Source: an uncultured Aminicenantes bacterium
GTDB lineage: Bacteria > Acidobacteriota > Aminicenantia > UBA2199
Length of the DNA: 64,000 bases
Direction: 5' to 3'
Assembly (NCBI GenBank): GCA_965195285.1
Contig: CBDAFS010000015.1
Coordinates: forward strand, 1-64,000
Shown piece after piece: positions 35,492 through 54,965 of the stretch. Positions within the stretch are counted from its first letter, which is position 1; each line of letters begins with the position of its first letter. Under the pieces are notes generated by a model, which saw nothing but the letters and a program-made list of their open reading frames with translations, was not told where the DNA came from and ran no database searches. The translations under genes and the position numbers were made by a program.

Positions 35492-38440
35492 ATGACACTT
35501 TCTAAAGATTATCAGCCTCAATTTGGTATATTTCATGATTTAATGAAATTCAGGGTGAGGGAGATCCTGTTGGTATCGAGTTATTATGATGCGTTTGTTC
35601 TGGAAGAAGACGGGAGGATATCCGAAAAGATATTCAGTGAGTATCTGGATTTAAACCTTCGTTATGTCCCCCGTATCAACCGGGTTTCAAGTGCCGAAGA
35701 AGCGCTGCTGCTATTGGAAGAAGGACATTATGACCTGGTGATTACCATGATGAGGATAGCCGATATGGATGTGATGGAATTCGGCCGCAAGATAAAGGAA
35801 ATAAACCCGGAACTCCCGGTTGTCCTCTTAACGTATGAATGGGTGGGGATTGATCTTTTTAGCCAATTGAGGACTTCAGCCAATATTGATAAAATATTTT
35901 TCTGGTCCGGGGATACCCGGATTTTGTTAGCCATCATCAAATATGTAGAAGACATCAAAAATGTCGATCAGGATATTAAGCAGGGGGTTCAGGTCATTCT
36001 TATCCTGGAGGATTCTCCCAAGTTTTATTCCATGTATCTTCCGGGCATATATACCGAGATCATGACCCAGACCCGGTTGTTAATCACCGAAGGTATCAAT
36101 GATTTACATCGATTGTTGAGAATGAGGGCCAGACCCAAAATCATTATGGCTGAAACCTATGAGCAGGGCATGAAACTCTTTCGAAAATATCGAAAGAACC
36201 TTCTTGGAATCATTTCGGATGTTGAATTTATCAGAAACGGTGAAATGGATGATACCGCGGGCTTTTTATTTGCGGAAAAAGCCAGGGGGGAAATCCATGA
36301 CCTGCCCATTTTGATCCAATCGGCCAAGTTGAAAAACAGGGAAATTGCTGTTCAAAACGAATTGGATTTCATTAATAAGAATTCCCCGCATTTATTACAG
36401 GAGTTGACCCAGTTCATTCTGAACCGGTTTGGCTTCGGTGATTTTGTTTTCAGTTATCCCGACGGCAGGGAGATTGGCCGGGCCGGTTCGCTTCATGAGT
36501 TTCAGAAGATGATCCAAATTATTCCGGCCGAAAGCCTGGAGTTTCATGCCAGCAGGAATCATATCTCCATCTGGCTGCGGGCCAGAACTGAATTTGAAAC
36601 AGCTGAAAAACTAAGGCCCAGAAAAGTATCGGATTTTACAGATATTGAAGAAGTGAGAAAATTCATTCAACGGACCATTCAAAATTTGATCATTCAGAAT
36701 CAGTCCGGTGTGATTACCGATTTCGGACCGGCCCGGTTTGATATGGACCATTCATTTGTGCGTCTGGGAAACGGTTCGATGGGTGGAAAAGCCAGGGGGA
36801 TCGCTTTCCTCAATAGCTTATTGATGGACTCACCAATCAAAAAAAACTTCGAAGAGGTAGATATCCGGACACCCCATACTTTTGTGATCTGCAGTGAAGT
36901 ATTTGAGGAATTTATCGCTGCCAATGATTTGCAGAACGTTGCCATCGGGGAAACCGACAATGACCGGATTGCTAATGCATTTATAGAAAAAAAGCTTCCG
37001 GATAGAATTGCCAGTGATCTTCGAACCTTGCTGGAAAATATCCGCTACCCTTTGGCCATTCGTTCTTCGAGTCTGCTCGAGGATTCTCAAATGCTGCCGT
37101 TTGCCGGTTTGTATTCCACCTATATGCTTCCCAATAATCATCGGGATGTCAGGGTACGGTTGGAACAGCTGTGCAAAGCCGTCAAGCTGGTATTTGCATC
37201 CGTGTTTTACAAATCTCCCAAGGAATATGTAAAAAATACAAATTTCAGAATAGAAGAAGAAAAAATGGCGGTGATTATTCAACAGGTAGTGGGCCAGGAA
37301 TTCAACCACAGGTTTTATCCGGTCATCTCCGGTGTGGCCCAGTCTTATAATTATTACCCGATTTCCAATATGGAACCGGAAGATGGGATTGTCCAGCTCG
37401 CACTGGGTCTGGGCACCACCATTGGAGAGGGCTCTCAGACCCATAAATTTTCCCCCCGGTTTCCGGAGATGAATCCACTGTTTTCAGCCCCGGTTGAATG
37501 GGTGAATAATTCTCAGAATTATTTTTATGCACTGAATCTCGCTGAACCGGATGTGGAAATAATAAAAGACGAAAAATTCAGTTTGAATAAATTGGACCTC
37601 ACCCATGCTGAAAGCGATGGGACCCTGTATTTTGTTGCCAGTACTTTTTCACCCCAGGACAATGTCATTCAGGATAACCTTACTATCAAGGGACCCCGAT
37701 TGGTGACGTTTGCCCATGTGTTGAAATACAATATTTTTCCGCTCTCGGAGATTCTGCTTGAGATCTTGAAATTGGGTCGCACCTCTTTTGGTTCTCATAT
37801 CGAATTGGAGTTTGCCATCAACCTGTTCAGGGAAAAGAAAAAGAAACCGGAATTTTTTCTGTTGCAGATAAGACCACTGGTTGGTGGGCGGGAAACCATC
37901 CAGGTATCCTGGGATCAGGATTCTCAAAAGGATATCATATGCATGTCATCCCATGCCCTGGGAAATGGGATATACGATGATTTGTATGACCTGGTTTATG
38001 TGGATCCCGATGCCTTTGATGTTTCCAAAAGCCGGGTTATAGCGGGCGAAATCGGAGAAATAAACCAGGGATTCATTGCAGAAAACCGAAAATATATTTT
38101 AATCGGCTTTGGTCGATGGGGTACCGCCGATCCCTGGCTGGGGATTCCGGTTGAATGGTATCAGATCTGCAAAGCCGGTATTGTGGTAGAATCCAACAGG
38201 GATGGTTTTATTGTAGACCCATCTCAGGGCAGTCATTTTTTTCACAATCTGGTATCTTTAAAAATTGGATATTTTCACATTAAAAAAACCAATGACCAGG
38301 AGTTCATATCCTGGGACTGGATCAAGAAACAACGCCCTTTCCGAAAAAAAAAATATATTAGACATGTTCGATTTAAAAAACCGCTTCCCGTAAAAATTGA
38401 CGGACGCCAGTCTAAAGGTATTATTTTGAAGCCCCGCTAA
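35492..38440 (+). CDS. Receiver-like domains plus PEP/pyruvate-binding (PPDK_N) domain protein
   Basis: GGKARG, AIRSSSLLED, FAGLY, SQGSHFF; degenerate N-terminal receiver domains. Confidence 0.8.
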   Translation: MTLSKDYQPQFGIFHDLMKFRVREILLVSSYYDAFVLEEDGRISEKIFSEYLDLNLRYVPRINRVSSAEEALLLLEEGHYDLVITMMRIADMDVMEFGRKIKEINPELPVVLLTYEWVGIDLFSQLRTSANIDKIFFWSGDTRILLAIIKYVEDIKNVDQDIKQGVQVILILEDSPKFYSMYLPGIYTEIMTQTRLLITEGINDLHRLLRMRARPKIIMAETYEQGMKLFRKYRKNLLGIISDVEFIRNGEMDDTAGFLFAEKARGEIHDLPILIQSAKLKNREIAVQNELDFINKNSPHLLQELTQFILNRFGFGDFVFSYPDGREIGRAGSLHEFQKMIQIIPAESLEFHASRNHISIWLRARTEFETAEKLRPRKVSDFTDIEEVRKFIQRTIQNLIIQNQSGVITDFGPARFDMDHSFVRLGNGSMGGKARGIAFLNSLLMDSPIKKNFEEVDIRTPHTFVICSEVFEEFIAANDLQNVAIGETDNDRIANAFIEKKLPDRIASDLRTLLENIRYPLAIRSSSLLEDSQMLPFAGLYSTYMLPNNHRDVRVRLEQLCKAVKLVFASVFYKSPKEYVKNTNFRIEEEKMAVIIQQVVGQEFNHRFYPVISGVAQSYNYYPISNMEPEDGIVQLALGLGTTIGEGSQTHKFSPRFPEMNPLFSAPVEWVNNSQNYFYALNLAEPDVEIIKDEKFSLNKLDLTHAESDGTLYFVASTFSPQDNVIQDNLTIKGPRLVTFAHVLKYNIFPLSEILLEILKLGRTSFGSHIELEFAINLFREKKKKPEFFLLQIRPLVGGRETIQVSWDQDSQKDIICMSSHALGNGIYDDLYDLVYVDPDAFDVSKSRVIAGEIGEINQGFIAENRKYILIGFGRWGTADPWLGIPVEWYQICKAGIVVESNRDGFIVDPSQGSHFFHNLVSLKIGYFHIKKTNDQEFISWDWIKKQRPFRKKKYIRHVRFKKPLPVKIDGRQSKGIILKPR

Positions 38441-38609
38441 GCCTGGAATCCTTATTCCTTTTGATGACCCGGCCGGCGATAGATAAGGAATACCAGTCCC
38501 CCCAGGATACCATAACCCACTCTCATCCCCAGATCGATGAGTTCGCCGGACAGGGCAAAGGCTGGCGGAAAATTCATCAACTGTTTGAAACTGGCTGTCC
38601 GAATTCCCA
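38403..38609 (+). repeat. 207-bp direct repeat, copy 1
   Basis: Matches 40062-40268 with 5 mismatches by manual comparison. Confidence 0.95.
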
Positions 38610-38756
38610 ATAAATTTATTTTAAACGGAGTGATAATGCTTTTTCCGACTGCAGGTGTTCGGTGGACCTGAGTAGTAATTTGACTTTTTTAGTGATATCT
38701 ATAAAATAAATATTGAGAGGAGATCTGATTTTTATTAGATGATTAGGAGGAGAAGC

Positions 38757-39974
38757 ATGAAGAGATTTTTATTTTTTGTCATAATACCCATTTTGATTTT
38801 ACCAGTAATGACCTGTAACGAGGTGGTGGAGGAAATTATTGAAGAAATAACCTCCATGTCCTTTACCACACCCAATAAAATTTATGATGGCAATCTTCCG
38901 GCGGAGGGGGATAATACCAGTTATTTATTGGATCCAGCCATGGAGGTGAGTACGGATGGCGAGATTTATCTGATCTGGAATAATTGGATAAATGATGATG
39001 AAGATCGTATTTCCTTTGGATGGTCCGGTGATAGGGGGGATACCTGGAGTGAATCAAAAAGGATATCCAGTGGTTACAAGGCCTCCATTTCCCTGTCAAA
39101 TTCAGGAAATGTTAATGTTGTTTATCCTCGGTGCTGCCCCTGGGATTTATTTCATATCAGCTCATCGGACAATGGTACTACATGGCGATCACCGGTCCAG
39201 ATAACCAACTCCAGTTTCCTCACTCCCTCCCTGGATCCAAAAATTTGTATTGATAATTCTGGTAATATGAATGTGGCTTGGAATAAAGGGAATCAGCAAG
39301 ATGTATGGGAAGTGTATTTCAGCCACTCCTCTGATAGTGGCTTTAACTGGTCAGTGTCAATAGGGATATCAAATAAGCCCAACTATCATTCAAATGATTC
39401 CTCCATCACCTGTTTGGCAAGTGGAAGCATTTATTTGGTATGGCAGCAGAATCTTCCCCAAAACGCCATGCAGGTATTTTTCAGTCAATCGGATGATTAT
39501 GGGGTCACCTGGACAATACCCAAAGATGTATCGCCGGGGGACAATCATTCTGAACACCCCTTTATTACCTGTGATGGTTCATCCACCATCTACCTGACCT
39601 GGTCCAATAATTACCATTATACGGAAAAACTAAATGTATTTTTATCATTCTCTACTGATAATGGTGCAACCTGGAGAACTCCAGTCAATGTATCCAATAC
39701 TGCCAATGCTGATTCCAAATATCCGGTAATGGCTATTGATAATAAGGGATATATTTATATCGCCTGGATGGAGAAGGTGAGTGGCAACTGGGAGATATAT
39801 TTTAAGCATTCTCCGGATGGGGGAGAGAATTGGAGTGATCCGGTTAATATATCCAGTAATTCGGGTGATTCCTGTGTGCCGGTAGTGGGAGTGGATGGTG
39901 ATGGAACAGTATACCTGGTCTGGGATGATGATACCTCCGGCAAAAATGCCATTTACTTTGCTAGGAGTTTTTAA
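38757..39974 (+). CDS. BNR/Asp-box (sialidase-like) beta-propeller, probable lipoprotein
   Basis: Six SxDxGxxW Asp-boxes; signal peptide ending VMTC; GGAGG RBS. Confidence 0.8.
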   Translation: MKRFLFFVIIPILILPVMTCNEVVEEIIEEITSMSFTTPNKIYDGNLPAEGDNTSYLLDPAMEVSTDGEIYLIWNNWINDDEDRISFGWSGDRGDTWSESKRISSGYKASISLSNSGNVNVVYPRCCPWDLFHISSSDNGTTWRSPVQITNSSFLTPSLDPKICIDNSGNMNVAWNKGNQQDVWEVYFSHSSDSGFNWSVSIGISNKPNYHSNDSSITCLASGSIYLVWQQNLPQNAMQVFFSQSDDYGVTWTIPKDVSPGDNHSEHPFITCDGSSTIYLTWSNNYHYTEKLNVFLSFSTDNGATWRTPVNVSNTANADSKYPVMAIDNKGYIYIAWMEKVSGNWEIYFKHSPDGGENWSDPVNISSNSGDSCVPVVGVDGDGTVYLVWDDDTSGKNAIYFARSF

Positions 39975-40061
39975 TTGATAATGGTATTTATTTGAATACT
40001 TTTATTAAATAGAACACTGATAATTGATTCTATTTAATTCTAAAGTGAGGAGAGAATTACA

Positions 40062-40268
40062 GACGCCAGTCTAAAGGTATTATTTTGAAGCCCCGCTAAG
40101 CCTGGAATCCTTATTTTTTTTGATGATCCGGCCGGCGATAGATAAGGAATACCAGTCCCCCCAGGATACCATAACCCACTCTCATCCCCAGATCGATGAG
40201 TTCGCCGGACAGGGCAAAGGCTGGCGGAAAATTCATCAACTGTTTGAAACTGACTGTCCGAATCCCCA
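40062..40268 (+). repeat. 207-bp direct repeat, copy 2
   Basis: Matches 38403-38609. Confidence 0.95.
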
Positions 40269-41094
40269 GTCCATTTATGGCCGGTACGGTCATGAGCAGA
40301 ACGATCATTACCGGTACTTTGATCATGAAATCAATGGTATCCGGATTCTGGCCCAGAGCCCGGGCAATCAGGTAATAGTATATGATCATATTCAATTGAA
40401 ATATAATGCTGATCAACAGCGCAGACATGAGCTCAAAAGGCCGGTGAAAGTAAATGGATAGGGCTTGGTAAGATTCGTTTAATAAATGACCGACTTTTTT
40501 CGGTAATATTTTATTCAAAAAATTAAGAACTTTGGGGGCAATACCGGGATGAGCCAACATCATTCCAACCGCTCCCATTAAAATCAGGACAGCGAATAAA
40601 AACCAGATTCCTGTATTTTCATTGTCTCCCCTTAGGGTTTTGATGATTAAAGCGGTCAGGGCGATTAAAATCAGGGCTGCCAATCCGGTTATCCTTTCCA
40701 TTATGACAACCATTAAAGAGGTGGTGGTTTTCCCGGTCAGTTTTTTGCTTTCAATGACTCGGAGGGTATCGCCTCCGATTGTGGATGGTAAAAAAGTATT
40801 GAAAAAAGCTGCCATAAAATAGTAAAGAAAGAGTTGGCCGAAGTTGGCCTGGACATCCTGGGCTCTTAACATGAATTTCCATCTCAGGCTAATCAGGCCG
40901 AATCCTACCAGGTGGAGCAGACTGGCCGGAATAAGGTACTTGAGCGAAGCAGAAGAAAAGGCCTCAAAGATCTTTTTAAAAGCATCGGTGAGGCCACCCT
41001 GTTGATTGGAGAGCATGAGCAGAAAGTATCCGATCAGTATGGTGCTGACCACTATCCTGAGAAATAAAAGTATTGTCTTTTTTTTCATGTTCAT
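40111..41094 (-). CDS. LPG-synthase-TM / flippase-like membrane protein (UPF0104)
   Basis: SLRW, FFNTFLPSTIGGD, GLGIR; multiple TM. Confidence 0.8.
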   Translation of the reverse strand: MNMKKKTILLFLRIVVSTILIGYFLLMLSNQQGGLTDAFKKIFEAFSSASLKYLIPASLLHLVGFGLISLRWKFMLRAQDVQANFGQLFLYYFMAAFFNTFLPSTIGGDTLRVIESKKLTGKTTTSLMVVIMERITGLAALILIALTALIIKTLRGDNENTGIWFLFAVLILMGAVGMMLAHPGIAPKVLNFLNKILPKKVGHLLNESYQALSIYFHRPFELMSALLISIIFQLNMIIYYYLIARALGQNPDTIDFMIKVPVMIVLLMTVPAINGLGIRTVSFKQLMNFPPAFALSGELIDLGMRVGYGILGGLVFLIYRRPDHQKK

Positions 41095-49964: not shown

Positions 49965-50684
49965 ATGAGATTGTTTTCCGCTTTTCAGGAATTGTTCAAT
50001 CTGGTTCGGGTCTCGGTCTATCAACCCAGGTGTATATGCTGTCAGGACTTACTGGTATTCAAAGAGGAGCAGCATATCTGTGGGTCATGCCGTTCTCAAA
50101 TTCAACCCTTTTTTTTTCCGGTCTGCCGTCTTTGCGGAAAATCTATCAACGAAAATGGGGAGATCTGCGGAGAGTGCTCGATAAATCCCCCTCCCTTTCG
50201 GAAACATGCTTCCTATACACGGTATGAAGGGGTTATTAAAGAGCTGATTATTTATTATAAGTTCAAGGGCATACAGGGATTAAAAGTTCTTTTTGAGAAT
50301 CTTCTGGCTGAACTGTTCAACAGCCAAATCACCGGGCATTTCGACTGGATGGTTCCGGTACCGGCTGACAGGGGGAGGAAGCGGGAACTGAATCCCATTC
50401 TGGCTCTCTGTAAAAGGTTATCCAGGAGTGTGGACATTCCTTTAATGCGGAAAAATCTAATCAAGGTTAAAAGGACCGAACCCCAGGTCCTGTTGAGTCA
50501 GGCCAGGCGTTTGAAAAATCTGGACGGGGCTTTTCAACTAAAAGATCCAGCCGCAGTCAAAAAAAAGAGAATATTGCTGGTGGATGATGTGTATACCACC
50601 GGTACCACCATAAAAAAGTGTACTCAGTTGCTTAAAAAGGCCGGAGCCGACGTAGTGGCCATTACCCTGGCCCGATCAATATAA
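49965..50684 (+). CDS. comF: ComF family protein (double Zn ribbon plus PRTase)
   Basis: Four CxxC pairs; ILLVDDVYTTGTT. Confidence 0.9.
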   Translation: MRLFSAFQELFNLVRVSVYQPRCICCQDLLVFKEEQHICGSCRSQIQPFFFPVCRLCGKSINENGEICGECSINPPPFRKHASYTRYEGVIKELIIYYKFKGIQGLKVLFENLLAELFNSQITGHFDWMVPVPADRGRKRELNPILALCKRLSRSVDIPLMRKNLIKVKRTEPQVLLSQARRLKNLDGAFQLKDPAAVKKKRILLVDDVYTTGTTIKKCTQLLKKAGADVVAITLARSI

Positions 50685-50787
50685 ATATTTCAATTAGACC
50701 ACTAACTCTTTCGGGTGTTGCGTTGGTTATATAAAGTTTATCCTGACTGTTAAGATTTGTGTCAGTATGTGAATTTAATATTATTTT

Positions 50788-51156
50788 TTATCTGGTGCAG
50801 CTCCAGGTACCAGTCCAACCCGAATCTTCAATAAATGTGCCATTCATGGAGTTGTTGGTTGGAGCTGACCCAATATAATTTGATGAATTGCCGTTGTCCC
50901 AGACAACATTGAAATTTACCGTTGTTCCTGTTACCGTATATGTACCGATTCCACCCCAGCCATCCACTGCAGTGCCTGCAGTTGCTGATCCTGAAAATGT
51001 GATTGTGGTAACATATATGTCCATATCAGAATAAGTAAGGGTTAAACTCCAAAGTCCGACAATGTTAAAAACTTCTTCTTCAGCGGTTTTACAAGCAGGC
51101 ATAAATATTAAAGCAATACAAACTAAAAATAATAACAACAAAGAAAACTTTTTCAT
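50788..51156 (-). CDS. Small lipoprotein (beta-barrel-like)
   Basis: Lipobox-like MPAC; GGAGG RBS; T/G-rich strands. Confidence 0.75.
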   Translation of the reverse strand: MKKFSLLLLFLVCIALIFMPACKTAEEEVFNIVGLWSLTLTYSDMDIYVTTITFSGSATAGTAVDGWGGIGTYTVTGTTVNFNVVWDNGNSSNYIGSAPTNNSMNGTFIEDSGWTGTWSCTR

Positions 51157-51263
51157 TGTTCCTCCTTTTTTTTTATATTATATAATTGAAAATATAAAAT
51201 CAATAAAAAACTTCAATAGCTTTATTTATGAAAAGAGCGATTATAACATACAAAAGTGATTTT

Positions 51264-51350
51264 TGACTGATAGATCCTGTTGCAGTCAAAAAAAAGAGAA
51301 TAGTGGTGGCCATTACCCTGGCCCGATCGGTGTAGATCGGGCGGGGTAAG
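51264..51350 (+). repeat. 87-bp direct repeat derived from the comF 3' end, copy B
   Basis: One mismatch to 52363-52449; homologous to 50531-50573 plus 50652-50677. Confidence 0.95.
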
Positions 51351-51365
51351 AGTATATATGACAAT

Positions 51366-52357
51366 AAGGGGTGACGGTGCTTGTATTCTTGTAAATATGT
51401 TGTTAAAATAAATGTATGAGAAGAGCCAGGATAACATACCAGGGTGCCTTTCATCATGCGATGAACCGAGGACATGAGGGAAAGAAAATCTTTTTAAAGG
51501 ATTCAGAAAAGAATTCATTTTTAAAACTATTAAAAGAGACTGCAAAAGGATACCGTATCAGAATTTTTGCCTATTGTATAATGGATAATCACTACCATTT
51601 AGTACTGGAAAACAGTTCAGGTCGGATGTCAGAATTTTTTAAAAAGCTTAATGGACAATATGGGAGGATTTATCGGAGAGAGAATAAAGGAAAAGGGTAT
51701 GTTTTCCAAGACAGATTTAAATCAAAGCTAATTCAGGATGATTCATATCTATTGATGGTTATTGGGTATGTATTGAAAAATCCTGTTAGAGCTGGTTCGG
51801 TTACAGATTTTGTGGATTATCAGTGGTCCAGTTCTTCAATGTATTTTAATAAAAATATTTTGGATATTGTAGATAATAAATATGTTGAATCACTCTTTGG
51901 TTCCTTTCATAATATGTCCAATCAGATCAGGAATTTGACAATCAAAAAATTGCCTGTAATTCTAACCAGGGTTGGAGAAATTATAGGTGGAGAAGAGTTT
52001 GTTGTCGAATCTTTGGAGAAGTTCAATCGTCGGAAACCGAATGATCAAGTAGAAGAGTATAAAAGAAAAGATGATTATTATTTTGATCCTGTAGAAAAAG
52101 TGTTTTATGAATTTAAAAAGAAACATAAAATAAATGCTTTTGATATTGACACAAGATCTTATAAAGGCAAACGATTGAGAGGTGAATTGTTGGTTTATTT
52201 GAAGGATAATGCGGGATTAACATATGGAATGATAAAAAAAGTACCTATTTTTAGTGACCTTAAAATCAATTCCTTGGGATGGATTTACAAAAATGCAAAA
52301 ATCCGGTTGAAAAGCTAATTTGAGATAAATACAAGTTTACAAGCACCGTCACCCCTT
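51366..52357 (+). mobile_element. RAYT element bounded by terminal inverted repeats
   Basis: aaggggtgacggtgcttgta (51366-51385) and tacaagcaccgtcacccctt (52338-52357), perfect 20 bp, extendable to 28 bp with 2 mismatches. Confidence 0.85.
51416..52318 (+). CDS. REP-associated tyrosine transposase (Y1 HUH) with C-terminal helical extension
   Basis: NRG, YCIMDNHYHL (HUH), FQDRFKS, YVLKNPVRAG (catalytic Tyr), YQWSS. Confidence 0.9.
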   Translation: MRRARITYQGAFHHAMNRGHEGKKIFLKDSEKNSFLKLLKETAKGYRIRIFAYCIMDNHYHLVLENSSGRMSEFFKKLNGQYGRIYRRENKGKGYVFQDRFKSKLIQDDSYLLMVIGYVLKNPVRAGSVTDFVDYQWSSSSMYFNKNILDIVDNKYVESLFGSFHNMSNQIRNLTIKKLPVILTRVGEIIGGEEFVVESLEKFNRRKPNDQVEEYKRKDDYYFDPVEKVFYEFKKKHKINAFDIDTRSYKGKRLRGELLVYLKDNAGLTYGMIKKVPIFSDLKINSLGWIYKNAKIRLKS

Positions 52358-52362
52358 TTTTA

Positions 52363-52449
52363 TGACTGATAGATCCTGTTGCAGTCAAAAAAAAGAGAAT
52401 AGTGGTGGCCATTACCCTGGCCCGATCGGTGTAGACCGGGCGGGGTAAG
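52363..52449 (+). repeat. 87-bp direct repeat derived from the comF 3' end, copy C
   Basis: Matches 51264-51350. Confidence 0.95.
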
Positions 52450-52504
52450 GACCTATAGAGAAGGAGGAGGTTGATTATTAATCGATAAGATGGCTTTCAT
52501 TATT

Positions 52505-53131
52505 TTAATCGTCATCATCATCTTCTTCTTCATCAACGTTCGTCACCTTTAAGACTGGATTTAATTTATATTTCGGATTGTCCTTGTTTCCGGTGACTTT
52601 TAGCGATGCCTCAGGATCAACTTCGATGGTAATTTCTGTTGTACCATCCTCATAAACAATGAAAGGCACATTGACTTTGATTTTACCACTGGGAACTTCA
52701 GCTTCATAGACCCCGCTTTCAGTGGTTACCTGGGCTCCGGTTACATCAAACCTGAATTTATTATAATTTCCGGCAGCTATATCAGTCTCAGATATTATTT
52801 CAGCCCAGGAAGTAGCATCAAGCACCATCAGATCAAAAGTGCCATCAGATATTGGAAGTGAAATCCAGCCTGCATCCTGATCAGAAGTTCGATGCACGTC
52901 AAGATTTTCAAAAGTAACCACAAGACTAATCACATCTTCTTTATTAGCTTGAGATGCGATCATCGCAATGTTTGACGCACTGTCAGCAGTTATAGAGAAC
53001 TTGAAAGTACCTGTCTTAGTGCCTAACTCAACATAGTCTTCATTTTCCTGTAATTCTGAACTTTTTTTGCAATTGTTAATCAAAAAAATCATCATCAAAA
53101 TTAAAATGCTTACATACCATATTTTTTTCAT
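52505..53131 (-). CDS. DUF4382-like lipoprotein
   Basis: Signal ending INNC; FDLM, GNYNKFRF, VPSGKIK, YKLNPV; AGGAG RBS. Confidence 0.75.
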   Translation of the reverse strand: MKKIWYVSILILMMIFLINNCKKSSELQENEDYVELGTKTGTFKFSITADSASNIAMIASQANKEDVISLVVTFENLDVHRTSDQDAGWISLPISDGTFDLMVLDATSWAEIISETDIAAGNYNKFRFDVTGAQVTTESGVYEAEVPSGKIKVNVPFIVYEDGTTEITIEVDPEASLKVTGNKDNPKYKLNPVLKVTNVDEEEDDDDD

Positions 53132-53164
53132 AATATTCTCCTGATAAAGTTTCCAAATTATAAT

Positions 53165-53180
53165 AGCATTTATCATGCCA
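53165..53180 (-). promoter_or_regulatory. Putative sigma-54 promoter
   Basis: TGGCAT-GATAA-ATGCT, 33 nt upstream of ATG 53131. Confidence 0.55.
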
Positions 53181-53351
53181 ATTTATTCAGGTTTGTTTCT
53201 TTATTTTTAATTTTAGCATAGAATCCATTACCAATAATACTTTTCAGAAAAATTTATTTTTTGGTAATTTTATTTTTTTGAAAATAAATTAAAGAATTGA
53301 CAATATTCATGGTTTACAATCTGTCAAGTTGTAAACTCAAATGATTTCCCT

Positions 53352-53451
53352 AAAGGCCGGAGTCGAAGTGATGGCCATTACCCCGGTCCGATCGGTTTAA
53401 GCCGGATGAGTTGAGGAGAGGGTGTGGTATCCTGTTGATATTAATCGATAA
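53352..53451 (+). repeat. Degenerate comF 3'-end copy D
   Basis: aaaggccggagtcgaagtgatggccattaccccggtccgatc resembles 50636-50677; tail gttgatattaatcgataa resembles 52470-52488. Confidence 0.8.
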
Positions 53452-53561
53452 ATAGAGTTTGATTAATTGATTCAATCCAGGTATAATTTTTTTGACTTGA
53501 ATTGAATTCAAATTCAAAGCATTATGTCCCAAAAAAATTAACCGAAAAAGGACAACAAGAC

Positions 53562-54965
53562 ATGAGTGGATTTTTTGGAATCACCAGTAAAAAGGATTGC
53601 ATCGTTGATCTTTACTATGGCATTGACTATCATTCCCATTTGGGAACCCGTTACGGTGGCATGGCTGTGGCCACTTCCCAGGGGTTTAACAAGGCTATTC
53701 ATAGTCTGGAAAATGCTTATTTTCGCTCAAAATTTGAGCCTGACCTTTCGTATCTGGCCGGAAACCGTGGAATCGGAATCATCAGTGATCTGGAACCACA
53801 GCCCATTATCGTAAATTCTCACCTGGGGCGGTTCGCAGTGGTTTCTGTGGGAAAAGTGTGTAATGTTGATCAACTGGAATCCGTTGCCTTAAAAAACAAG
53901 AGACATTTTTCCGAAACCGGGGGGACTAAAATAAATCCCACCGAATTGATTGCCATGTTGATAACCGAATGTGACAGTTTCGAATCCGGCATTGCCAATG
54001 TCCAAAACAAGGTACAAGGGTCCTGTTCGATGCTGGTTTTAACCGAAAAAGGACTCTTTGCCGCCCGGGATAAACTGGGCAGAACCCCCATCATATTAGG
54101 GAAAAATGACCATGCCTATGTAGCGGCATCCGAAACCAGTTCATTTCCGCCTCTGAATTTTGAAATTGAACATTATCTGGGTCCCGGAGAGATCGTATTT
54201 ATGACTCCGGAGGGTTATGAGCAGCGTCAGAAACCAGGGGACAATCTTCAGATATGCTCTTTTTTATGGGTATATTTCGGTTATCCTCCATCATACTATG
54301 AAGGTATCAATGTTGATGAATGTCGCTACCGCTGCGGCCGGGCACTGGCCCGGAATGATGATGTCGGGGCTGATTTTGTTTCCGGAATACCAGATTCGGG
54401 GATCGGTCATGCCATCGGATACAGCAATGAACGCAGAATTCCCTATAAGCGGCCTTATGTGAAATATAGCCCGACCTGGCCCCGCAGTTTTATGCCCCAG
54501 AATCAGGATACCCGGGATCTGGTAGCCAAGATGAAGCTGATATCCAATTCGGATTTGATAGAGGATAAAAAAATCATTTTTTGTGAGGATTCCATTGTCA
54601 GGGGAACCCAGTTGCAGGATAAAATAAAGGCATTGTTTAAACTGGGAGTCCGGGAAGTTCACATGCGGGTCGCCTGTCCACCACTGATGTTTCCCTGTCA
54701 GTTTCATAATTTTTCTACCTCCAGATCCACTATGGAGCTGGCTTCCCGCAAAGCTATTTTTGAACTGCAAGGAGAAGAATCTCCCGGACTGGAAGAATAC
54801 CAGCTGGATCATTCAGAGAAAAATCAGCAAATGGTTGAGCAGATTAGAAAGCGGATCGGTGCTACCACCTTGAAATATCAAAAAATATCTGACCTGGTTA
54901 AGGCCATCGGCCTCCCCTTTGATCAATTGTGTACCCATTGCTGGGATAATTCCAGCTATTTTTGA
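53562..54965 (+). CDS. purF: Amidophosphoribosyltransferase, variant lacking the N-terminal Cys
   Basis: PDSG, EDSIVRGT PRPP site, VHMRVACPP, Fe-S cysteines; starts MSGFFG. Confidence 0.85.
   Translation: MSGFFGITSKKDCIVDLYYGIDYHSHLGTRYGGMAVATSQGFNKAIHSLENAYFRSKFEPDLSYLAGNRGIGIISDLEPQPIIVNSHLGRFAVVSVGKVCNVDQLESVALKNKRHFSETGGTKINPTELIAMLITECDSFESGIANVQNKVQGSCSMLVLTEKGLFAARDKLGRTPIILGKNDHAYVAASETSSFPPLNFEIEHYLGPGEIVFMTPEGYEQRQKPGDNLQICSFLWVYFGYPPSYYEGINVDECRYRCGRALARNDDVGADFVSGIPDSGIGHAIGYSNERRIPYKRPYVKYSPTWPRSFMPQNQDTRDLVAKMKLISNSDLIEDKKIIFCEDSIVRGTQLQDKIKALFKLGVREVHMRVACPPLMFPCQFHNFSTSRSTMELASRKAIFELQGEESPGLEEYQLDHSEKNQQMVEQIRKRIGATTLKYQKISDLVKAIGLPFDQLCTHCWDNSSYF

Follow-up and report, generated by a model that had tools for sequence, protein, structure and literature searches.

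Serial insertion with long target duplication as the probable origin of a comF-end array in an uncultured Aminicenantes bacterium

How do single foreign genes, each set off from the next by a copy of the end of a host gene, come to stand in a row between two chromosomal neighbors? The question is raised by a 64,000-nucleotide (nt) stretch of DNA from an uncultured Aminicenantes bacterium. This whole stretch, here called the window, comprises positions 1 to 64000 of the 138-kb contig C15, and its source genome (G000) is a metagenome bin of 62 contigs and 3.28 Mb that is 94.9% complete. Between a comF-family gene and a purF-like gene, the window holds three inserts set apart by four stretches derived from the comF 3' end (50531-53452), which we call copies A, B, C, and D. 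An earlier note, made from the letters of the window alone, had seen here an integron-like series of single-gene insertions with the comF end, possibly folded as a hairpin, as the attachment site. We compared the interval with those of three same-genus genomes (G001, G002, and G003) and with metagenome contigs from four sequencing runs (X2, X3, X18, and X19). Our results indicate that the array is probably the product of three successive insertions at the comF 3' end, each accompanied by a long duplication of the target.

The features of the interval, in window coordinates, are as follows (aa, amino acids).

49965-50684, + strand: comF-family gene, intact, with a double zinc ribbon and a phosphoribosyltransferase domain; C-terminus VVAITLARSI-stop
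50531-50677, + strand: copy A, a part of the living comF whose downstream duplicate is B; it flanks the lipoprotein insertion as its left repeat
50678-51259, - strand: insert 1, lipoprotein cassette of 582 nt; gene 50788-51156, 122 aa, with a signal peptide and lipobox Cys
51260-51350, + strand: copy B, a comF end that has been displaced, lacks 74-78 nt internally, and forms two hairpins; it is the repeat to the left of the transposase element
51351-51367, no strand: filler of 17 nt between B and the TIRtron, part of neither the repeat nor the element as found elsewhere
51368-52355, + strand: insert 2, a TIRtron, with terminal inverted repeats around a 300-aa Y1/HUH transposase (TIRYT) gene, 51416-52318
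52359-52504, + strand: copy C plus tail (C proper, 52359-52449); the repeat to the right of the transposase element and to the left of the DUF4382 cassette
52505-53335, - strand: insert 3, DUF4382 lipoprotein cassette of 831 nt; gene 52505-53131, Pfam DUF4382
53336-53452, + strand: copy D plus tail, reading VMAITPVRSV-stop; a displaced comF end plus the original comF-purF spacer
53562-54965, + strand: purF-like amidophosphoribosyltransferase gene, Pfam GATase_7; the whole unit with its promoter-like site spans 53459-54965

The comF-end copies and the order of events

A repeat search of the window recovered a four-copy family starting at 50636, 51287, 52386, and 53352, a 91-nt pair (51260-51350 and 52359-52449, 98% identical), and a 50-nt family at 50531, 51260, and 52359 (80 to 82% identical); a 23-nt core is identical across A, B, and C. 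With blastn-short against all 62 contigs, copies of A to D were found at the comF locus only, the sole other match being an 18-19-nt A-rich stretch on contig C14. The four copies of the earlier note are thus confirmed by search and alignment, as is the graded divergence that it had described: B and C are 98% identical over 91 nt, versus 82% for A and B (50 nt), 73% for A and D (75 nt), and 70% for C and D (105 nt). The homology of A to B and C ends at 50677, 7 nt ahead of the comF stop codon. B and C carry one common deletion relative to comF, in which sequence matching A at 50531-50580 resumes at 50655-50677. The deletion, put earlier at about 78 bp, lies between GTGG repeats and measures 74 to 78 nt, depending on the placement of the shared GTGG. 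The alignments also bear out the tail common to C and D, which ends in attaatcgataa.

Next, we asked how many events these copies record. B and C are the two flanks of one later insertion, that of the transposase element, and not independent copies; as halves of a single 91-nt duplication they leave three events, not four. Copy C is the former true comF end, and copy D is the oldest displaced comF end. Repeat lengths in G000 are 147 nt (A/B), 91 nt (B/C), and about 117 to 135 nt (C/D), and the boundaries of the repeat pairs differ on both sides between events. The copies are derived from the target and were not carried by the inserts, because the DUF4382 cassette and the TIRtron sit elsewhere without comF-like borders. 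When a 22-nt degenerate version of the repeat core was scanned over the metagenome contigs, two matches were obtained, both on unrelated GC-rich contigs without homologs of the locus proteins.

Folded as single-stranded DNA, B forms two hairpins (-21.9 kcal/mol, z -7.0), as had been proposed, and so does C (-20.3 kcal/mol, z -5.0); 0 of 200 shuffles were as stable in either case. Measured against shuffles in the same way, the hairpins are not present in A (z +0.6) or D (z +0.55). A separate observation concerns the first 32 nt of B and C (within 51260-51296 and 52359-52395). These stretches show seven differences from comF, three of which complete a 10-bp stem out of an inverted repeat that is imperfect in comF. 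Past the stop codon, the C-type tail has in the same manner gained complementarity to the comF end. Quasipalindrome correction is a templated mechanism, and the stem-perfecting changes together with the complementary tail look like its product, a local hint of template switching.

The relatives supply intermediate states. Homologs of comF are found in 40 of the 41 genomes searched, and comF adjoins purF only in the window's genus. In G002, comF is followed by a D-type tail and the purF upstream spacer with no insert, up to the contig end 83 nt past the stop codon. Copy D is 88% identical to this living G002 comF end over 102 nt, and 89% identical over 126 nt with downstream sequence included. 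G003, about 92 to 95% identical to G000, has the order comF-DUF4382-D-purF, with 91% aa identity in the DUF4382 protein and 90 to 91% identity in the D copy, and its comF end is undeleted and bears a C-type tail and hairpin. A contig from run X2 joins comF at 50650 to 52401 and continues to 52980 through DUF4382 (253 and 580 nt on the two sides), with the lipoprotein cassette and the TIRtron both absent; it shows the G003 state, here with the whole of comF. Contigs from run X18, which belongs to a different study, bridge A-lipoprotein-B, B-element, and C-DUF4382-D-purF and thus present the full array; a 69-nt unitig common to B and C has double depth there (409 versus about 200).

The sister species G001 adds another case. 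Its order is comF, a different lipoprotein gene (144 aa, 32% identical), a 71-nt comF-end copy, a Ni-superoxide-dismutase gene, and purF. The 71-nt repeat is 100% identical, and its boundaries differ from those in G000. This lipoprotein insertion is an independent event, so at least one further event has occurred beyond the three in the G000 lineage. The Ni-superoxide-dismutase gene beside it (L031, 3700-4167; Pfam Sod_Ni, 94.7 bits) has no recognizable comF-end copy on its purF side. Across relatives, then, the comF-purF interval is not invariant: its cargo varies, with comF-end copies in between, and serial single-gene insertion at one site, as the earlier note supposed, is upheld by the states in G002, G003, X2, and X18 and by the independent G001 event.

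Further contig observations concern the same interval. For the TIRtron alone, no contig bridges an empty B/C site. The transposase element has a depth of about 10 in run X19 versus tens of thousands on its flanks, so that most cells may lack it; there is no joining contig, and we did not use this as evidence. A low-depth X19 contig (9x, short side of 43 nt, 88% likeness) joins 51253 to 51359 without B and is either a deletion derivative or a chimera. In another X2 contig, D is largely missing, 53335 being joined to 53421 with 10 other letters between.

From these states we can propose an order. Each incoming DNA would have entered in or beside the comF tail, with 90 to 150 nt of target copied to both sides; because the target is duplicated at each insertion, comF, on the left, would still have an intact end, and purF, on the right, would retain its upstream region. 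In the first event, the DUF4382 cassette would have entered the comF-purF gap and duplicated about 75 nt of coding sequence and 55 to 70 nt of spacer (C/D). In the second, the lipoprotein cassette would have entered 7 nt ahead of the comF stop codon, duplicating 147 nt (A/B-C), after which the displaced copy may have lost 74 to 78 nt by slippage between the GTGG repeats. In the third, the TIRtron would have entered that displaced copy, giving the 91-nt duplication (B/C) together with 17 and 3 nt of filler.

The inserts and the same footprint at other loci

To see what kind of DNA had entered, we examined each insert. Insert 2 is a TIRtron/TIRYT, having both a Y1/HUH transposase gene and inverted ends. 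Its 31-nt terminal inverted repeats (51368-51398 and 52325-52355) begin with GGGGTGAC, and the arms 51363-51398 and 52325-52360 are 86% complementary. The transposase matches Pfam Y1_Tnp (4.4e-11, 43.4 bits; cut-off 23), and its translation shows an HYH motif and GYVLKNP. The NCBIfam model REP_Tyr_transpos (NF047646) scores 69.1 bits, under its cut-off of 80; with this subthreshold score, and with terminal inverted repeats rather than REP palindromes as flanks, a RAYT in the strict sense was rejected. Inverted ends of 17 to 32 nt occur in 13 of the 15 paralogs examined (this copy and 14 further tblastn matches), and solo ends are scattered across G000. Flanking direct repeats accompany only 3 of these 15 paralogs.

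Copies of the element outside the array fix its borders. In G002 and in runs X2 and X3, homology begins at 51368-51369, and C continues differently past GGGGTAAG; the TIRtron-bearing X2 and X3 contigs pass into unlike sequence at 51368-51369 and 52358-52361, and no comF-like sequence lies at the borders of the G002, X2, and X3 copies. The element is 91% identical at another locus in G002, and the corresponding G000 site is uninterrupted. At 64251-64309 of contig C15, just past the window end, lies a solo inverted end together with the last bases of a transposase gene. Over 35 nt it matches the right end of the array element at 100% identity, and it is what is left of a second copy, some 12 kb from the first. 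Other dispersed palindromic repeat families in G000, beginning with GGGGACGGTCTTT or GGGGTCAGGTCTAA, underlie many intergenic direct-repeat pairs and probably belong to other transposase paralogs. Examples, none with a strand assigned, are the following.

C27:8825-8920: palindromic repeat family
C53:37417-37633: palindromic repeat family
C55:110615-110724: palindromic repeat family
C39:440-489: palindromic repeat family

The two lipoprotein cassettes have no inverted ends. Insert 1 provides the final two codons and the stop codon of comF, which therefore ends in SI in place of SV. Its 122-aa product has no Pfam or NCBIfam family match, and 12 further tblastn matches in G000 show 29 to 41% identity; long flanking repeats are found at only 4 of the 13 paralogs. 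Given the counts of 3 of 15 and 4 of 13, long flanking repeats as a trait of the transposase or lipoprotein family were rejected. At the right edge of this cassette (51230-51262), a short frame, MKRAIITYKSDF-stop, resembles the N-terminus of the transposase paralogs, MRRARITYQGAF; it may be a 5' remnant of an older transposase gene, and the DNA identity of about 73 to 75% is low enough for chance. Insert 3 carries a DUF4382 gene (Pfam, 1.6e-17, 64.5 bits; cut-off 25) with a promoter-like site at 53327-53300, 8 nt short of the cassette edge, so that the cassette spans from the stop codon to just past the -35 element. G002 has this cassette at an unrelated locus (91.6% identity over 842 nt), where its neighbors are a BNR-like gene and a gene for a sigma-54-type regulator; the flank on the regulator side shares only 72.8% identity with G000, and no comF-like sequence stands at the cassette borders.

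We then looked for the same footprint in the rest of G000. Self-comparison gave 83 direct-repeat pairs (30 to 320 nt, at least 80% identity, 250 to 8,000 nt apart), many of which are dispersed REP-like families, tandem paralogs, or repeats at transfer RNA (tRNA) gene ends. Thirty of the 83 were viewed in detail, and five other loci were compared with relatives, in which three of the five have a clean single-copy target, that is, an empty site. These three loci, again with no strand assigned, are listed here.

38395-38619 and 40055-40278 of the window: 225-nt repeat, 95.6% identical, around a 411-aa BNR-repeat lipoprotein gene (38739-39974)
C43:11830-14185: 89-nt repeat; the gene inside encodes an exported, sulfatase-like protein of 690 aa, and G003 and G002 have the empty site
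C8:11250-12102: 42-nt repeat, 100% identical, around an inverted-repeat-flanked Y1 transposase gene; empty in G001 and G002

The 225-nt repeat consists of the 3' ends of a convergent PPDK_N/response-regulator gene and an LPG_synthase_TM gene, and its site (38395-40278) is empty in all three of G001, G002, and G003. At some tRNA genes, direct repeats of the gene end bracket single genes (294 to 1,276 aa) with no integrase seen between. Such repeats may be what remains of integrase sites, or duplication of the kind seen at comF may also act at tRNA genes. They lie at the following G000 positions, without a strand.

C41:39524-40729: tRNA-end repeat locus
C41:48685-50672: tRNA-end repeat locus
C43:59381-62276: tRNA-end repeat locus
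C46:48772-53283: tRNA-end repeat locus

The neighbors of the array are a comF-family gene (Pfam DZR_2, 3.6e-9; Pribosyltran, 3.7e-9) whose NCBIfam ComF/GntX matches (E values of 3e-26 to 6e-29) are under the curated cut-offs and a purF-like gene whose TIGR01134 match (2.9e-56) scores 192 bits versus a cut-off of 350, below that threshold. Directly past the duplicated stretch, the purF-like gene has a promoter-like site, TTGATT-17-TATAAT, at 53459-53487. The cassette lipoprotein genes are oriented opposite to comF and have promoter-like sites of their own. Across the region, 12 such sites were found versus 12.4 expected by chance; because this total is not above chance, the individual calls are only consistent with function. 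A scan of the region found no intrinsic terminators, and an Rfam search of 50400-53700 gave no match at E values up to 1.

Routes of insertion

How, then, did the inserts enter? We tentatively favor, at somewhat less than an even chance, illegitimate insertion during replication or repair that is independent of any recombinase, with template switching as the preferred version and a molecular step that we infer. Synthesis would leave the chromosome, copy foreign DNA, and reenter upstream of its exit point, so that the duplication could be of any length, and filler and short microhomology would be left at the junctions. The inserts are 0.6 to 1.0 kb long and are minimal complete promoter-plus-gene units. 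An alternative version is a staggered break filled in around a captured fragment. Filled alleles would then have spread through homologous recombination in a lineage with DNA uptake genes, which are represented in G000 by comF and by ComEC. Exchange among these species may be common, because identity between G002 and G000 is uneven: it is 67 to 83% in most compared stretches and 94 to 95% in two, a pattern that may reflect frequent recent DNA exchange within the genus. The two stretches are G002:C221:1-909 versus G000:C15:69300-70208 and a G002:C257 flank versus G000:C31:129104-129980.

Selection may contribute to the recurrent use of this site. The noncoding stretch 53401-53477, which lies just upstream of the purF promoter-like site and has no Rfam match, is about 92% identical between G000 and G002, versus about 70 to 74% for comF DNA, and it is a constrained element. 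Given this conservation and position, it may be that only insertions that duplicate the 53401-53477 region leave both neighbors intact.

Several points weigh against our reading. The comparison rests on three fragmented same-genus genomes, one of which, G002, has its contig end 83 nt after comF. The clustering of three or four hits in about 150 nt, a hotspot, is well above what a site-blind process would give. Junction microhomology is only about 3 to 6 nt and fuzzy. The DUF4382 cassette of G002 has no flanking repeat longer than 10 nt, so not every cassette insertion leaves a footprint. At the repeat pairs at C15:70486 and C41:26204, the contigs of the relatives break and there is no clear empty site. 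Ku was not found in the 94.9%-complete genome, which removes Ku-dependent classical end joining as a route. Two full-length integrase genes that are not obviously Xer, on C43 and C3, could act in trans. Finally, three of four repeat boundaries at the comF locus coincide with hairpins (percentiles of 0.05 to 0.13), a coincidence that is lost across 15 loci and 30 boundaries (median percentile 0.47; Kolmogorov-Smirnov p 0.74). Hairpins as a general determinant of repeat boundaries were therefore rejected; the relation holds at the comF locus only.

Among the other explanations, the one that survives best, although we consider it unlikely, is a Campbell-type integration, in which circles carrying cargo and a comF-end fragment enter by a single homologous crossover that duplicates the carried fragment. 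Such a crossover yields arbitrary repeat lengths and event-specific boundaries, as observed; repeat-flanked inserts can loop out as one-repeat circles; DNA uptake genes are present; and the perfect 71-nt repeat of G001 fits a recent homologous event. However, cargo and target fragment must already be joined, so the model explains spread and not origin, and the cassettes at other loci carry no comF fragment. The 17 and 3 nt of filler at the TIRtron junctions are also unexpected for a clean crossover.

Slightly less probable still is decayed site-specific integration. Here, elements with a tyrosine integrase would have accreted at the comF 3' end and later been trimmed to one gene each, the copies being of the attL/attR type (att, attachment site). 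Direct repeats of gene 3' ends are the classic footprint of such elements, the tRNA-end repeats and the two integrase genes of G000 speak for it, and a core around GTGGCCATTACCCTGGCC is common to all events. Against this, no integrase lies in the comF-purF interval of G000, G001, or G003 or on the X2 and X18 contigs, and none of the six genome-wide matches to the tyrosine recombinase profile PF00589 (on C58, C7, C43, C3, C60, and C50) is on contig C15. Nor is there a fixed crossover point or identity block, since the boundaries vary on both sides with each event. Variable boundaries and the lack of an integrase on C15 together argue that the copies are not insert-borne recombination sites. The inserts are promoter-plus-gene units of minimal size, and cassettes at other loci lack a comF-like site. 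Outside the genus, a comF-end repeat of at least 20 nt was found at 0 of 26 comF loci within 1.45 kb downstream and at 0 of 9 such loci for which 1.9 to 9.3 kb of downstream sequence was covered.

Far less probable is the integron-like system of the earlier note, in which a folded comF-end copy serves as a single-stranded recombination site processed by the neighboring RAYT-type transposase. B and C do form two strong hairpins, a Y1/HUH transposase does lie between them (related families act on single-stranded DNA hairpins), and the end result is a single-gene array. However, A and D have no hairpins, which tells against a folded attachment site. Cassettes found elsewhere do not carry a comF-end site, a result that eliminates the integron-like model and makes any model with an insert-borne attachment site less likely. 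No recombinase match lies on C15. As for the proposed cutting enzyme, the transposase has its own 31-nt inverted ends recurring genome-wide, so that cutting at the comF end is not supported; it is the last arrival, missing from the G003/X2 state and from G001, and its paralogs rarely have flanking direct repeats (3 of 15). The array genes also have promoter-like sites of their own and run opposite to comF.

A further explanation is that the comF end region was duplicated once in tandem and then decayed, or that the array is an assembly artifact. It would suit a 62-contig metagenome bin in whose relatives repeats break contigs (those of G002 and G003 end at the comF end), but it is highly improbable, because each repeat pair encloses different cargo, the same junctions occur in X18 contigs from another study with double depth on the shared repeat, and the G003 and G001 structures come from independent assemblies. 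The tandem duplication, which the earlier note had named as a refutation, is excluded by the different boundaries of the repeat pairs and by the derived deletion common to B and C. In view of the imperfect repeats, the recurrence in independent assemblies, and the X18 depth, an assembly k-mer artifact was rejected.

Returning to insertion by template switching, a broader claim would be that insertion with long target duplication at gene ends is a regular, recombinase-free route of gene gain in this lineage. We regard this as doubtful, more so than the three-event history of the comF array. If true, template switching during replication would copy promoter-plus-gene cassettes (mostly for exported proteins and lipoproteins) and even transposase elements into gene ends, a single landing pad could be struck more than once, with later transfer between species, and integron-like arrays would arise without any integrase. 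The clustered hairpin-perfecting changes in B and C would be a second trace of the same switch-prone replication.

Comparison with known systems

The source given for insertion with long target duplication is reportedly Nobusato et al. 2000 (Gene 259:99). Genome comparison has revealed the class since 2000, for the most part with restriction-modification genes; a mechanism is still lacking. The criteria in the relevant part of Furuta et al. 2010 (PMC2853133) are an insert of less than 20 kb, a duplication of more than 30 bp, a genome-unique repeat, an empty site in a relative, and no other mobile element; in the same part, the mechanism is called unknown, double-strand breakage is suggested, and most cases are in naturally competent species. 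According to a passage of Lim et al. 2012 (PMC3457768), this mode has been recognized also for "other DNAs."

The comF array is clearly a multistep member of this class. Its repeats are longer than 30 bp, derive from a single-copy target, and are genome unique (147, 91, and about 117 to 135 nt in G000; 71 nt in G001). The lipoprotein cassette and the TIRtron are missing in the X2 contig, with which G003 is consistent, and DUF4382 is missing in G002, whose contig ends 83 nt past the stop codon. The lipoprotein (582 nt) and DUF4382 (831 nt) cassettes are well inside 20 kb and have no integrase or transposase gene, whereas insert 2 is itself a Y1-transposase element, so that the exclusion of other mobility genes does not strictly hold for it. 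As in the cases of Furuta et al. 2010, the target repeats are direct, single copy in relatives, variable in length, and often overlap gene 3' ends. In contrast to those cases, the cargo here consists of lipoprotein genes and a transposase element instead of restriction-modification genes, one 150-nt site has taken three stacked or nested events that mimic a cassette array, and a fourth, independent event is present in the sister species. No description of a stacked multievent site was found in the portions of the literature on the class that were covered, and printed cases are possible.

The other long duplications to which ours can be compared are those of Mycoplasma IS1630, 19 to 26 bp as cited in the Fig. 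1 legend of Furuta et al. 2010 (PMC2853133). From that legend, the likeness is in direct, unusually long, and variable target duplications; the repeats here are 42 to 225 nt, and the lipoprotein and DUF4382 cassettes have neither inverted ends nor a transposase. TIRtrons and their TIRYT transposases are described by Di Nocera, De Gregorio, and Rocco 2013 (PMC3733652), with GGGGWSAS as the consensus of the ends and with one sharply defined group that is acidobacterial. The ends of insert 2, GGGGTGAC, fit this consensus, and as in PMC3733652 the family is multicopy with solo ends. What differs is that copies here are flanked by repeats of 91 nt (array) and 42 nt (C8) with empty sites in relatives; in PMC3733652, "target site," "duplication," and "direct repeat" have 0 occurrences each.

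With an integron, the locus shares an array of single genes divided by related repeat units, some of which form hairpins. It differs in having no IntI, in repeats that originate in the target and are not carried along by the genes, and in the lack of a common repeat structure; its array genes also have promoter-like sites and are opposite to the upstream gene. Integrative elements accrete in tandem at gene 3' ends, as among streptococcal integrative and conjugative elements, and att-flanked derivatives without an integrase occur. The comF locus resembles such tandem accretion in that copies of a host gene 3' end separate foreign blocks and the host gene stays intact. Unlike it, the locus has no integrase in any state seen, its boundaries vary, and its inserts occur elsewhere without an att-like site. 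Stacked events can thus pass for an integron-type array or for att sites with no recombinase involved, a caution for genome scans.

Taken together, three ordered events can be read at this one site, with intermediates preserved in nature; a sister species shows an independent event, and the inserts are also visible at other loci. The footprint is not bound to restriction enzymes, given that the cargo here is made up of a Y1-transposase element and lipoprotein genes. Through the duplication, both neighbors retain what they need, comF its reading frame and purF its conserved upstream region. The comF tail, which has received three foreign pieces one after another, is thus a tidy multistep example of single-gene gain in bacteria by a known yet unexplained way.

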